From the NCBI GenBank assembly GCA_951406725.2, contig OX597818.1, positions 118,358,001 through 118,422,000 on the forward strand: 64,000 bases of DNA, given 5' to 3'. A program made the translations under genes and the position numbers. This document shows, in pieces, positions 3,181 through 37,416 of this stretch. The DNA is from Octopus vulgaris. Lineage: Eukaryota. Numbering within the stretch: position 1 is the stretch's first letter; each line of letters starts with the position of its first letter. The notes beneath the pieces were generated by a model, which searched no databases, was not told where the DNA came from, and was given only the letters and a program-made list of their open reading frames with translations.

Positions 3181-3730
3181 TTGGGTTGTCCGGAAAGTTC
3201 GTACTGATTTTTATAGGAAAGAAAATGATCAATAAATACTTGCCATTACATGTTTAATCAACCAAATATGAAGCATTTTGTTGCACAATGCATCTCCATC
3301 TTTCCTTTAACTTGGAAATACACTCTTCCAAGAATTGAGGTGGTTTCATGGCAAAGAATTCATCAAGGTATCTTTTATGTCATCCAAGGAATTGAAATTT
3401 TTACCATTAAGACAATTCTGCAGAGACCTGAATAAGTGGAAATAAGAAGGAACAATATCTGCTGAATATGGAGGGTTGGGTAACACATCCCAGCTGAGCT
3501 GGTTCCCAAAACATCAAGTGCCGAAAATGAACTTTCATATCTTCCATTTTTAAAGGGTTACAGAAATAACACAGGTTATAGGAACATAAACCTTATTCCA
3601 GGAAAAGATAGCTTAAACTGTACTCTAAATGGAGGTGTAGTCATATTCTATTGTATGGACTCAACCATGTTCTAAAATAAGTCGAAAGGTAAGCTACTAT
3701 AAATCGGCACAGACTTTCCGGACAACCCAA
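3181..3730 (-). mobile_element. Internally deleted mariner transposon
   Basis: TIRs TTGGGTTGTCCGGAAAGT and ACTTTCCGGACAACCCAA with TA flanks. Minus strand joins an N-terminus (MEDMKVHFRHLMFW) to a C-terminus (WDVLPNPPYSADIVPSYFHLFRSLQN...ERWRCIVQQNASYLVD*). Confidence 0.92.
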
Positions 3731-4228
3731 TAGATTCGATGATGCCTTTGTGCTGCAGTGTTGTAATAGTGGTTACTTTGTGCATCTCCAATAACACACG
3801 AAATACGAATTCCGTTTAAGGTATTATACTATTACATTCCCAAGAGGAATATCTAGAAGGCTGAAGACAATAAAACACAGAATTTTATAGAAAACTAAAA
3901 TTTTTTATTCATCCAGACATCATTTATTTTTATCATTATTTTATCAAGATTTCAATAGAAAATTAAACTGAAGTTACTAATATGTGTTACGAAATTTTAC
4001 TACCATTTGAAAAGTTTAACTCAGATATTTATTTGCTTTCATCGCTGTATGGTTAAAGATACGAGAAGATTTACAGTTTTGTTTGCGTCATTATTTGATT
4101 TAGTAAGGTACTTAATGGAAAATCACATATAAATATTGATTAAACTGACTACAGGATTATATGCAAGACAAAGACAATAGCTAAACGCTTTTGGTCTTTG
4201 AAAAGTTCACATCGAATGATATAACGTT

Positions 4229-4825
<597 letters not shown>

Positions 4826-10017: not shown

Positions 10018-10400
10018 GATTAGCGGTATATCATCTGTCTTTATGTTCTGAGTTCAAATTCCGCCGAGATCGACTTACCTTTCAGCCTTTCGGGGTCGTA
10101 AATTAAGTACCACTGAAACACTGGGGTCGATCTATTCAACTTAATCCCGCCCCACCAAGCTGCCCTTGGGGCAAACAATTGAAAATGGCGGCAAGCTGGC
10201 AGAAATGGTAGCGCTCCGGCCGAAATTCATAGCGGTATTTTGTCTCTCTTTCCATTCTGAGTTCAAATTCCGGCGAGGTCGACTTTGCCTTTTATCATTT
10301 TGGGGTCGATAAATTAAGTACCAGTTGCATAGTGAGGTCGGTTTAATCGACTAGCCCCGTCTCCAAAATCTCAGGCCTGGTGCCTTGAACAGAAAAAAAG
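10018..10400 (+). mobile_element. Two tandem SINE family B copies
   Basis: GGCGGCAAGCTGGCAGAA head, TTCTGAGTTCAAATTCC B-box-like motif, and CCTTT.A.C.TTT.GGGGTCG.AAATTAAGTACCA core, each core present twice. Confidence 0.85.
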
Positions 10401-11218: not shown

Positions 11219-11296
<78 letters not shown>

Positions 11297-11349
11297 GAAA
11301 AAACAAGTCAAAAATAGAAAATGCTAAGATGATTTTATAGTGAATCTTT

Positions 11350-11387
11350 CAGTACCGGTTTCGGTCATTTTGAGACCTTTTCAACTG
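11350..11387 (-). ncRNA. Hammerhead-like motif in left pLTR arm
   Basis: CAG-TTGAAAA-GGTC TCAAAAT GACC-GAAA-CCGG-TA-CTG on the minus strand. Confidence 0.55.
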
Positions 11388-12021
11388 TAACGATTAATTA
11401 ATTAAATTTAGAAAAATTAGAAGAAAAGTTTTTTTAAAAGAATATTTCTGTAGTAGTGTTCAGATATAAGTAGCATTCTGCCTTTCTCTGACTCCCTTGT
11501 TTGCACTTGTATGTTCGAGGTCGTTTTGAGTTCTTGGTAGGATAGGTGAAGAATAATGAGGCTGATGTGGAGAGGGGGTGGGGAAATCTGGGAATGCCTT
11601 AATGGTCGTATTTTGAATGGTCAGTGGCTGACAGTAGTCGCAGTTCAATTCAGGAATTGTTTATGGAATTTGCGTAGGCGTTATACTGAAAGACATTAGT
11701 GACAAGGTTAAGGGGTGGAAGGTGGAGAAGTAGAAGAAGAAGTAGATGACGATGTTGATGATGATGATGATGAAGAAGAAGAAGAAGAAGGAGAAGGAGA
11801 AGATGGTGGTGATGATGGTGGTGATGATGATGACGACGATGATGATGATAATGATGATGATGAAGAAGAAGAAGAGGAAGAAGAAGAAGAAGAAAAAAAA
11901 CAGAGAAGGGAGAATATGATTGGGTGTAAGTATAGCTGTGATGGGGCTGATTAGTAATGGATTCTATGGAGTGTAATATTTGTGTGTGTATATATTTCTT
12001 TTATTCTAAAGTTGAGGTATA

Positions 12022-12360
12022 TTAATTGTTTGTCGTAGACCCGTTAAGAAGTGGCTAGTATTTTGTAATAAAGAGATTTTCTTTACTTATTCGTTGTCTC
12101 GAGGTTGTATCGTCCCTAAATTGGTAGAGGGGGAAAATTCTGAAGTTTGGTGTTTTTTTGTTGGCGCAAGTATCTATGTGTTGGCTAAAAGCTATTTTTC
12201 TGTTTTGGGGAATTTTTATCTGGGATCTGTGCAGGGCCATTCGTTTACGCAAACCATTTTTTGTTTGGCCTATGTACTGCTCTTGACACCCGGAGAAGGT
12301 TAGTGAGTATATTAGGTTCTCCGAAGCACATGTGAAGTGATTTTCACTGTAAACCGTTGT
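12022..12360 (-). pseudogene. Penelope-type GIY-YIG endonuclease fragment
   Basis: Manual translation FTCASENLIYSLTFSGCQEQYIGQTKNGLRKRMALHRSQIKIPQNRKIAFSQHIDTC...FRIFPL...RISKENLFITKY*PLLN shows LIY/YIG motifs and conserved R, H, H, E, N; one premature stop. Confidence 0.88.
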
Positions 12361-12988
12361 CCCTCAACTTTAGAATAAAAGAAATATATACACACACAAA
12401 TATTACACTCCATAGAATCCATTACTAATCAGCCCCATCACAGCTATACTTACACCCAATCATATTCTCCCTTCTGTTTTTATCTTCTTCTTCTGCTTCC
12501 TCTTCTTCTTCATCATAATCATCATTATCATCATCATCGTCGTCATCATCATCACCACCATCATCACCACCATCTTCTCCTTCTCCTTCTTCTTCTTCTT
12601 CTTCATCATCATCATCATCAACATCGTCAACTTCTTCTTCTTCTACTTCTCCACCTTCAAACCCTTAACCTTGTCACTAATGTCTTTCAGTATAACGCCT
12701 ACGCAAATCCCATAAACAATTCCTGAATTGAACTGCGACTACTGTCAGCCACTGACCATTCAAAATACGACCATTAAGGCATTCCCAGATTTCCCCACCC
12801 CCTCTCCACATCAGCCTCATTATTCTTCACCTATCCTACCAAGAACTCAAAACGACCTCGAACACACAAGTGCAAACAAGGGAGTCAGAGAAAGGCAGAA
12901 TGCTACTTATATCTGAACACTACTACAGAAATATTCTTTTAAAAAAACTTTTCCTCTAATTTTTCTAAATTTAATTATTTAATCGTTA

Positions 12989-13026
12989 CAGTTGAAAAGG
13001 TCTCAAAATGACCGAAACCGGTACTG
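12989..13026 (+). ncRNA. Hammerhead-like motif in right pLTR arm
   Basis: Identical motif on the plus strand, with palindromic ACCGGT stem III and a GUA site. Confidence 0.55.
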
Positions 13027-13137
13027 AAAGATTCACTATAAAATCATCTTAGCATTTTCTATTTTTGACTTATATATATATATCAATTCGTATATTTCAT
13101 ATATATCAATTCGTGTGTTCCTTTCCACCCTTATATA

Positions 13138-13171
<34 letters not shown>

Positions 13172-13407
13172 CATATGTACATTGTGTATACATTGTGTAT
13201 AAACTCTATACTTGGAATGACAAATTTTAAATACTGTTGGATTTTACTCATAAAGTATTGGAATCTTACATATATACCATTCTGCCTAAAAAATGGATCT
13301 ACAATTGCAATATCCCTACATATCTCACATCTATTTTCTTTCCTCCACCTCACTCTCAATTTTGTATTCTATCTAAATTAACTATTGCTTAACCATCCCC
13401 TCACACC

Positions 13408-23799: not shown

Positions 23800-25090
23800 C
23801 GAAGGGGCGTTCTATAAGTAATGCCCCTGACCCACTTTCCATAGCAGTAGAGCAACGAAACTTGGCACAGTTATTAGTCTTTTTCTACATAGGAACCACC
23901 CAGAGTTACGCATTTCTCCCATTGTTTGTTGCAGCTCTGGAGACCGTTTTTGTAGAAGGACCCAGCTTGGGCCTCCAACCTCAACGTGACTTCAGAAATC
24001 AAGGCTGTATCATCTGGGAAACGCTTTCCTTTCAAAAACAACTTCATGACTGGGAAGAGGTGAAAATCAGAGGGTGCAAGGTCAGGAAAGTAGGGGGATG
24101 GGGGAGGAGTGCATAGTCATACGCCTGTGCTTCTGATCTGGCGACAAGCGAGTTGTGGACCGGAGCGTTGTCCTGCAAGAGGAGGATGCCTTTGCTGATC
24201 TTGCCCCGCCTCTTGATTTTGATAACTTCTCTTAATTTCCTCAAAAGGGAAGCATAATAGGCTCCTGCAATTGTGGTACCCTTTGCCAGGAAATCTGTCA
24301 ACACTACTCCGTCCTGGTCCCAGAAGACTGTGAGCATGACCTTGCCAGCGGAGGGCTGCACCCTTGCCTTCTTTGGAGGGGGTGAGTCACGGTGCTTCCA
24401 CTGCATTGACTGGGCTTTGGTCTCTGGATCATCGTGATGGACCCAGGTTTCATCCTGTGCAATCAGTCTTTTGAAAAATTTTGACTCATCTTCTTGGTAC
24501 ATCTCCAAATTCACCCTCGAGCACTTGACGCTTTCTTGCTTCTGGAAAGGCGTGAGCAACCTGGGAATCCATCTGGCAGACACCTTTTGCATATGCAAAT
24601 GGTTATGAATGATAGTTTCCACAGACCCGGTTCTAATCTTGACCTCATGGGCTATTTGGCGAATAATTATGCATCGATCTTCCAAAATGGCAGCCTCAAC
24701 TTGACGGACAGATGCCTCATCAATGGCAGAAGGGGCGACCAGATCTGGGAGCTGTTTCCACAGAGTTCCGACCATGTTTGAATTCACGATGCCAGCGTTT
24801 TACAAGGTCATATGATGGAGCATCATCACCATAAGTTACTTTCATTTCATCAAAAGTCTCCCGTGGTGTGCGTCCTTTCAAATACAAAAACCGGATCACT
24901 GCTCGACACTCAACAGGCTCCATTTCACACTTGACTCGGTTCAAACACCTGTAAAACAGAAACCACAATTAATTCAGAGCTGTAATTTGCCACTTACCCT
25001 ATAGAGATATAAATGATTGTACATGCAAAATTTCAGCTAGATCAAACAATGGCAAGTGTGTCAGAGGCATTACTTATTGAACGTCCCTCG
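23800..25090 (-). mobile_element. Full-length mariner DNA transposon (~1.29 kb)
   Basis: TIRs CGAAGGGGCGTTCTATAAGTAATGCCCCTGACCCACTT and AAGTGTGTCAGAGGCATTACTTATTGAACGTCCCTCG; TA duplication at 23798-99 and 25091-92. Confidence 0.96.
23874..24923 (-). pseudogene. Mariner DD34D transposase with two frameshifts (~24735, ~24100)
   Basis: MEPVECRAVIRFL...RSGRP, WIPRLL, QDETWVHH, QDNAPVH and HPP/YFPDLAPSDF motifs; 34 residues between the 2nd and 3rd Asp after frameshift repair. Confidence 0.95.
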
Positions 25091-36649: not shown

Positions 36650-37416
36650 TTCAAATTTTGGGACAAGGCCGACAGTTTTGCGGGAGGAGGAATTCTTTTA
36701 TATCGACTTCAGTGTTCAACTGGTATTTATTTATCCACCCCGAAAGGATGAAATGCAAAGTGTAACTCAAAGGAATTTTGAACACAGGACATAATGACAG
36801 ACTAAATGCCACGAACCTTTTTGCCCAGCATGTTAACGATTCTTTTCTACTCTAGGTTCAAGGACCAAAATTTGGAGGGAAGGTGTCAGTCAATTAGATC
36901 TACCCCAGTACGCAACTGGTACTTAATTTATCCACCCTGAAAGGATGAAAGGCAAAGTCGACCCCGGTGGAATTTGAACTCAGAACGTAAAGACAAACGA
37001 AATACAGCTAAGTATTTCGCCCAACGTGTTAACCATTCTTTTCTACTCTAGGCACAAGGGCCGAAATTTTGGGGGAGAGGGCCAATCGATTAGAGCGGCC
37101 CCAGTACTTAACTTGTTGACCCTGAAAGAATGAAAGGCAAAGTCGACCTCGAAGAAATTTGAAATCAGAACGTAAAGACAGACGAAATACCTTTACTACC
37201 CTCAAGGGTCTAAACACAGAGGGGACAAACAAGGACAGACAAACGGATTAAATCGATTATATCGATCACAGTGCGTAACTGGTACTTATTTAATCGACCC
37301 CGAAAGGATGGAAGGCAAAGTCGACCTCGGCGGAATTTGAATTCAGAACGTAGCGGTAGACGAAATACCACTAAGCATTTTGCCCGTTGTGCTAACGATT
37401 CTGCCAGCTCGCCGCT
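36650..37416 (-). mobile_element. Tandem cluster of about four SINE family B units
   Basis: Repeated GAAAGGATGAAAGGCAAAGTCGACC..GG.GGAATTTGAACTCAGAACGT; ends in the head CTGCCAGCTCGCCGC. Confidence 0.88.

Follow-up and report, generated by a model that had tools for sequence, protein, structure and literature searches.

Insertions of endonuclease-positive (EN+) Penelope-like elements (PLEs), as described by Craig et al. 2021 (PMC8557442) and Arkhipova et al. 2013 (PMC3846280), comprise partial tandems and head-to-head inverted truncated copies that carry a hammerhead in the pLTR, bear a tail of 30–40 bp at one end and lie in (TA)n targets. PMC8557442 treats the way in which such tandems and inversions arise as an open problem. 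In vitro, the Poseidon protein of the anole Anolis carolinensis nicks and extends both strands of an AT-rich target and starts reverse transcription (RT) at two RNA sites, one at each boundary of the tail, with a further internal start near the pLTR–ORF junction (Frangieh et al. 2024, PMC11167929). The same study reports that hammerhead cleavage is not needed, that priming is non-homologous and that start sites do not differ between strands, and predicts a dimeric enzyme. Minimal hammerheads are also known from PLEs, including a U3-A8 variant and pairs lying on opposite strands 100–700 bp apart (Cervera and de la Pena 2014, PMC4209133).

Here, we analyzed a 64,000-nt stretch of Octopus vulgaris DNA, referred to as the window, which contains one insertion of this inverted type, together with other copies of its family in the genome. 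The window locus itself is an ordinary dead copy in an already published layout; what is new is a population-level footprint, namely that exactly one of the two outward-facing 3′ ends carries the tail. Our literature searches found no description of a one-tail rule or of a Penelope slippery site, the 2006 and 2017 papers of Arkhipova, both possible sources, lying outside their coverage. The features of the insertion, in window coordinates, are as follows.

11274–11296, no strand: left genomic (TA)n target, adjoining a (CA)n tract; the tail-less 3′ end joins it directly in the sequence
11297–12364, minus strand: long arm, a 5′-truncated sense copy of positions 3251–4349 of the full unit at locus L032, ending at start site 1, without tail
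11350–11387, minus strand: minimal type-I hammerhead with U3-A8 core variant and palindromic ACCGGU helix III; predicted cut between 11353 and 11352
11726–11894, mirrored at 12483–12650, no strand: low-complexity GAA/GAT tract in the 3′ non-coding part, present in other family copies too
12018–12361, minus strand: unpaired spacer of 344 nt, the part of the long arm without a match in the short arm
12055–12364, minus strand: dead C-terminal remnant of the RT-GIY-YIG frame
12362–12364, no strand: head-to-head junction, a 3-nt overlap (CCT) common to both arms, seen as overlapping BLAST segments
12362–13071, plus strand: short arm, a second 5′-truncated copy in inverted orientation, unit positions 3598–4341
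12989–13026, plus strand: second hammerhead, an identical 38-mer; predicted cut between 13023 and 13024
13072–13098, plus strand: scrambled junction, a TA run plus a partial duplicate of the tail start, replacing the last 8 nt of the pLTR
13099–13140, plus strand: 42-nt tail with a TA-rich motif at each end, 95% identical to unit positions 1–42
13132–13176, no strand: right genomic (TA)n target

The arms align between 11297–12017 (721 nt) and 12362–13071 (710 nt) with 697 matches, 13 substitutions and one 3-nt gap, in agreement with the first-pass annotation, which had described near-identical inverted arms of about 710 bp around a 344-bp spacer. That annotation had also placed the element at 11297–13071 with a TA array at both ends. 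Its left end stands, but its right end does not: the (TA)6 at 13072 sits within the scrambled junction and is followed by the element's own tail, and since the short arm continues through these 27 scrambled nucleotides into the 42-nt tail, the element runs to about 13140. Because the tail is found on the right arm only, the two 3′ ends of the insertion are non-equivalent. The copy had further been read as a truncated one carrying inverted pLTRs; it is indeed inverted and truncated, but the arms are more than pLTRs, each being an independently truncated 3′ copy. The mirrored 62-aa ORFs are, as had been suggested, a by-product of this symmetry, and of the GAA/GAT tract as well.

On its minus strand, the spacer matched the Pfam GIY-YIG family with E = 0.0013 and 19.4 bits, below the cut-off of 22.6 bits, and the remnant is identical in 92 of 93 residues to the endonuclease of an intact RT-GIY-YIG frame at locus L045, so that the spacer's assignment to GIY-YIG holds. 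Three lesions mark the remnant: one nucleotide is deleted near 12337, Phe replaces Cys at 12296, and the frame is cut short by a premature stop codon at 12055–12057. If the calibration given in PMC13282606 (a distance of 0.09 for 25 My) applies, an arm divergence of 1.1–1.8% would place the insertion very roughly 1.5–2.5 My ago.

Both hammerheads gave matches to Rfam Hammerhead_HH9, at 11334–11398 (E = 0.02) in the left arm and at 12978–13042 (E = 0.0099) in the right arm. These matches face outward and score 22–23 bits, below the gathering score of 52, and no Rfam family matched the window insertion at its gathering threshold; with the identical 38-mer, they nonetheless support the hammerhead-like motif previously noted in each arm. 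The core fits the U3-A8 variant of PMC4209133, and the cut sites are predicted ones. The octopus motif shares with the minimal PLE hammerheads of that paper the type I topology, a short helix I and a palindromic, dimer-pairing helix III, whereas its helix II of 4 bp is shorter than the 7–8 bp of the Schistosoma motifs. Folding of the monomer is predicted to be weak (z −0.2 to −0.9), with helix III forming between two copies. Every arm extends at least 56 nt beyond the predicted cut, which argues that the RNA template was uncut at the hammerhead.

The hammerhead 38-mer has 1,765 exact matches in the genome (887 plus, 878 minus; reversed control, 0), and the top family copies are 99–100% identical over 401 nt. 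A search for an RT-bearing parent, proposed in the first-pass annotation, recovered a 784-aa frame at L045, in which RVT_1 (E = 2.7 × 10−8) is followed by GIY-YIG (E = 4 × 10−4) in a single frame, and a natural full unit of 4,349 nt at L032. The L032 unit is composed of the 42-nt tail, a short leader, ORF1, an RT-linker-EN frame and a 3′ non-coding region bearing the hammerhead; in full-length copies, the 42-nt tail is the leader directly upstream of the ORF1 ATG. Tandem junctions occur at L032, L127, L203 and L204, and L204:1–8341 is a very young tandem and inverted array with units 99.97–100% identical. With a GIY-YIG domain C-terminal to the RT, partial tandem and inverted pLTRs, a tail and a hammerhead all present, the Penelope identity proposed earlier is sustained, and the parent is an EN+ Penelope-like element of a young family.

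Judged by sequence features, the family appears Neptune-like. Its RT-EN linker, CGRPNCGIC, has the form C-X4-C-X2-C and falls within the Neptune pattern CX2-5CxxC, and in a comparison by eye with the rows shown in Fig. S2 of PMC8557442, its linker-to-GIY spacing resembled the Neptune rows and was longer than in the Nematis rows. It resembles the Neptune clade in this linker spacing, an RT with a DKG motif, a C-terminal CCHH-type GIY-YIG and a preference for (TA)n, and differs from Neptune and canonical EN+ PLEs, as far as those descriptions go, in having a separate 411-aa ORF1 in −1 overlap with T TTT TTA. Naiad and Chlamys, which have an N-terminal GIY-YIG and a DKA motif, were excluded because the octopus EN is C-terminal and the motif DKG. 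ORF2 had no sequence match in the PDB. Close RT-GIY-YIG relatives (P0031, P0073, P0076, P0077, P0082 and P0095) are filed under bacterial symbionts of bivalves and are likely host DNA in those assemblies.

To determine how common the two-armed layout is, we took the first 100 exact hammerhead matches on contig C1 and sampled their loci, together with L048, corresponding to 77 insertions. Two outward-facing 3′ ends were present in 33 of these (43%), a value that is slightly too high since two-armed insertions have two chances of being sampled, and further copies of the same architecture, for which the first-pass annotation had proposed a search, were found in number. Another 41 insertions were single-armed, and three were set aside (L102 and L127, with a broken 3′ end, and L103, whose second arm is only 79% alike). 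Most single-armed copies had TA at both ends, and ten of the 41 had a tail. When 49 loci were searched for very small inverted pieces of tail at the 5′ end of a single-armed copy, nothing scored above chance apart from a larger inverted segment in L144 and, in L103, the diverged arm. Adjacent two-armed insertions of different subfamilies, one within the TA run of the other, were seen at L101:666–8546 and at L099/L102.

The 5′ ends in the C1 sample were unevenly distributed: 25 of 109 fell within unit positions 4110–4139 (for example L104, L117, L121, L136, L137 and L152), compared with 6 and 8 in the flanking 60-nt windows, while some of the other listed 5′ ends are alignment breaks at the low-complexity tract. 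The resulting copies of about 230 nt appear to be run-off products reaching from a likely internal start in the upstream pLTR, a candidate transcription start, to the RNA 5′ end, or alternatively may mark a stall site.

The frequency of the layout bears on whether the fold-back at the window locus is kept by selection, either as a source of long dsRNA for ADAR or Dicer or as a ribozyme switch. The insertion is predicted to fold with 705 long-range pairs and each arm retains an intact hammerhead 38-mer, features that would suit such a role; however, the same layout is common to 43% of the sampled insertions, and the copy is young, with decay under way in each arm. The long frames of the window, a set in which small exons would go unnoticed, gave no conspicuous host coding exon and held only a mariner-type transposase and other fragments. 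The window's arms displayed no A-to-G skew, and among 221 family segments, eight were flagged for any transition skew and none was hyper-edited, so that no fixed ADAR hyper-editing was seen in the family. We consider maintenance by selection very improbable, and nothing points to a host function for the window insertion, which is dead. The dsRNA of about 700 bp proposed in the first-pass annotation as an ADAR or Dicer substrate accordingly survives as a predicted hairpin, while its ADAR and Dicer part found no support at the locus. Elsewhere in the window, a transposase frame at 24044–24799 (minus strand), presumably mariner-type, is similar to one in L044, and tandem and dispersed copies of a SINE-like repeat, which we take to be the common octopus SINE, lie at 36717–37190 and 10021–10352.

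We then scored the tail on the two arms of each pair. All 42 scorable pairs (33 from the C1 sample, eight among the top identity matches, and the window) had it on one arm and one arm only, an outcome for which independent choice of tails would give a probability of at most 0.5^42. Two of the top-identity pairs had been dropped, L033 as a duplicate and L046 for a broken end. Counting in L103, which has no tail at either end and whose second arm belongs to another subfamily or family, the proportion becomes 42 of 43; the join at L103:501–830 is head-to-head with a 79%-identical end from the other lineage and is possibly a two-RNA or two-event case. A search by ORF1 similarity yielded two further families, about 56% identical in ORF2, and the rule extended to both, with 3 of 3 pairs in the second family (L188, L190 and L191) and 7 of 7 in the third (L193–195, L197, L198, L200 and L202; L199 was unscorable). 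At L189, the inverted arm is a piece of the tail alone. Across all three families, TA-rich motifs bound the tail at both ends, and the tail lies directly before the ORF1 ATG. Among the 42 pairs, the tail was on the shorter arm in 20, on the longer arm in 14, and on arms of equal or unclear length in 8; a preference for the short arm was rejected (20 vs 14, P = 0.39).

These observations leave almost no room for the inversion being an assembly artefact created by a chimeric fold-back read. Such a read would not account for 13 arm differences and a gap, alleles private to one arm and unlike 3′ ends, and both the layout and the one-tail rule recur at 41 other loci of the family. Among the assembled contigs listed over 11905–12470 from four public runs (filtered, and from other samples), none bridged 12362.

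We further examined how the two arms of a pair are related. Across 33 pairs with arms longer than 200 nt, paired arms were 1.0% apart (199 columns) compared with 4.2% for shuffled pairings, and none of 10,000 shuffles gave a value as low. At the level of sequence comparison, this establishes that paired arms derive from one donor, though later gene conversion could have raised their similarity. In 38 pairs with 18,286 non-repetitive bases, we counted 100 arm–arm differences, comprising 81 private mutations and 19 family-common alleles; L148 carries five family-common allele differences between its arms. The private mutations were evenly split (42 in tailed and 39 in tail-less arms), and an excess in the tailed arm, as in the window (6 vs 3), was not general (P = 0.82). 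Neither arm is a copy of the other, since in 20 of 34 unequal pairs the shorter arm is the one with the tail and since each arm of the window exceeds its partner, the long arm by 344 nt at the 5′ side and the short arm by 42 nt at the 3′ side.

A shared donor and a single tail are difficult to reconcile with two separate insertions or with a later inverted duplication at the DNA level, which together we judge very improbable. Elements do enter TA runs beside older copies, as at L101 and L099/L102, and L103 as well as L090, where a TA run lies between the arms, may be examples of two insertions. However, most junctions between arms lack TA and are found at many unit positions, and separate events would not yield one tail every time or arms from the same donor; DNA duplication, for its part, predicts identical 3′ ends and a copied flank, neither of which was seen.

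We consider it probable that the window insertion is a dead, 5′-truncated two-copy product of a single event, the two nicked strands of a (TA)n target having primed on the RNA of one donor, one at the AU-rich site before the tail and the other at the AU-rich site after it. The GIY-YIG domain would nick both strands of the target, and because (TA)n is self-complementary, both nicked strands offer the same primer. The AU-rich sites on either side of the 42-nt tail would each pair with one 3′-OH, and exactly one tail would result if these two sites cannot both take the same primer. The cDNAs would stop at different points, anneal through a few bases or be end-joined, and template each other's second strand, whereas extension of only one primer would leave a single-armed copy. 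Microhomology at the junctions is modest, with overlaps of 2–4 nt in 8 of 16 clean junctions compared with 15% by chance; among the 34 unequal pairs, a further 8 junctions gave negative overlap values and 10 were unscorable. Twin priming from both nicked TA strands, inferred in the first-pass annotation, is therefore the best-supported mechanism, given the one-tail rule in 42 of 42 pairs and the same-donor arms.

In L1 twin priming, attributed to Ostertag and Kazazian, both target strands reportedly prime on the element's RNA and joining at microhomology produces an inversion. L1 inverts a non-overlapping upstream part and has one 3′ end, whereas both octopus arms keep their 3′ end and overlap over the whole length of the shorter arm. 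With Poseidon (PMC11167929), the octopus family shares an AT-rich target and, on our reading, two tail-bounding RT starts, both strands nicked and extended, and an internal start near the pLTR–ORF junction. In that study, the Poseidon start sites are unlike the target and shared by both strands, whereas in all three octopus families both sites resemble TA and an insertion never has two ends of the same kind. Because Poseidon belongs to another clade and uses the same start sites on both strands, its in vitro data as presented there do not predict a strict one-tail rule.

The chief rival, which we regard as unlikely, is self-priming with endonuclease resolution, building on ideas in PMC3846280 and PMC8557442: fold-back synthesis would yield a hairpin or inverted dsDNA intermediate, possibly from an antisense template, and staggered endonuclease cuts at the two TA-rich motifs would resolve it so that one side keeps the tail. 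Since both ends of the tail are TA-rich, the tail boundaries could be endonuclease cut sites in such a DNA intermediate, and the scheme accounts for same-donor arms and one-sided tails. It also suits the spacers of at most 21 nt, making near-perfect palindromes, in 7 of 42 pairs and the short snap-back pieces at some junctions (L092 and L154). However, a fold-back copy must lie within its template, so that the tails on short arms in 20 of 34 pairs need extra steps, as do arms that copy past the partner's 5′ end (L093 and L046), and the tail ends correspond to RT start sites in vitro in the Poseidon study (PMC11167929).

Returning to twin priming, the arms offer a hint as to whether one or two RNAs were copied. 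At L093 and L046, the tailed arm, after a jump, continues into sequence that lies upstream of the partner's 5′ end, and jumps ending within about 100 nt of the partner's stop were found in the tailed arms of L046, L092, L093 and L154 and the tail-less arm of L085. Jumps so near the partner's stop hint at one shared RNA; L138 is a misfit, and snap-backs can explain three of the five. We slightly favor a single RNA, on which a trailing polymerase would displace the leading cDNA, over two RNAs of one donor.

The overlap between ORF1 and the RT frame provides a candidate route by which the enzyme might be made. ORF1 is 411 aa long. Its overlap with the RT frame is in the −1 register, and T TTT TTA is found there in all 44 BLAST rows, representing 37 distinct loci that were partly chosen by similarity to this region; in L032, the slippery heptamer region spans unit positions 1240–1303. 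L031 has no Met before the conserved KGLKF motif, and L032 has one. The heptamer recurs in register at 12 loci of the second family, in which an in-frame Met follows the slippery site, and at 6 of 6 loci of the third, so that three families with unrelated flanks carry it; in the remaining 12 of 30 loci, ORF1 ends are broken or shifted. Loci with T TTT TTA in the divergent families include L157, L160–L168, L178 and L180–L184. The heptamer thus has the X XXY YYZ form, in register and conserved, that is expected of −1 programmed ribosomal frameshifting, which makes frameshifting a candidate. Pseudoknot-free folding gave no stable structure within 45–100 nt downstream of the heptamer in the window's family (0 to −2.1 kcal/mol), compared with −6.5 and −13 kcal/mol in the other two families. 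A stop one ribosome length after the slippery site was rejected as a general feature (the distance is 33 nt in one family, 36 nt in another and 63 nt in the remaining one).

ORF1 itself matched no Pfam family below E = 0.09 and had no usable ESM Atlas match. Three homologs at 46–50% were found, and the database homologs P0001 and P0003 both terminate in RFL at the corresponding position. At L031:2675–3907, the Trp-rich helical block in the center of ORF1 is conserved whereas its Arg/Asn-rich tail varies, and a first look gave 2,685 candidates in the genome. In contigs from four runs, which are guessed to be RNA, may be DNA and carry no locus assignment, 28–29 of 30 bins of a full copy were covered, with no splice joint near the ORF overlap. 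The window's family does not have the single ORF that the abstract of PMC8557442 ascribes to canonical EN+ PLEs; the legend of its Fig. 1, however, allows a frameshift-separated ORF1 with a pseudoknot in some PLE type, and a two-ORF layout therefore does not exclude PLE membership.

A more specific form of asymmetric twin priming, which we offer tentatively and hold somewhat short of an even chance, combines these elements. A dimeric enzyme, produced as a minor −1 frameshift fusion to ORF1, would nick the two (TA)n strands, which would base-pair with one AU-rich docking site each, 42 nt apart on a single RNA, and would copy one stretch of that RNA twice with strand displacement. The tail would then be the fixed footprint of this priming step, and nearly half of all insertions would be born as long hairpins.

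The one-tail rule in three families, together with tail ends that match the TA target, links a genomic layout to the two start sites known from in vitro work, and this population footprint makes an open mechanistic question testable. Octopuses belong to an animal group known for heavy RNA editing. Our results imply that hundreds of long inverted repeats in the genome are by-products of insertion, which would constitute a standing potential supply of dsRNA.
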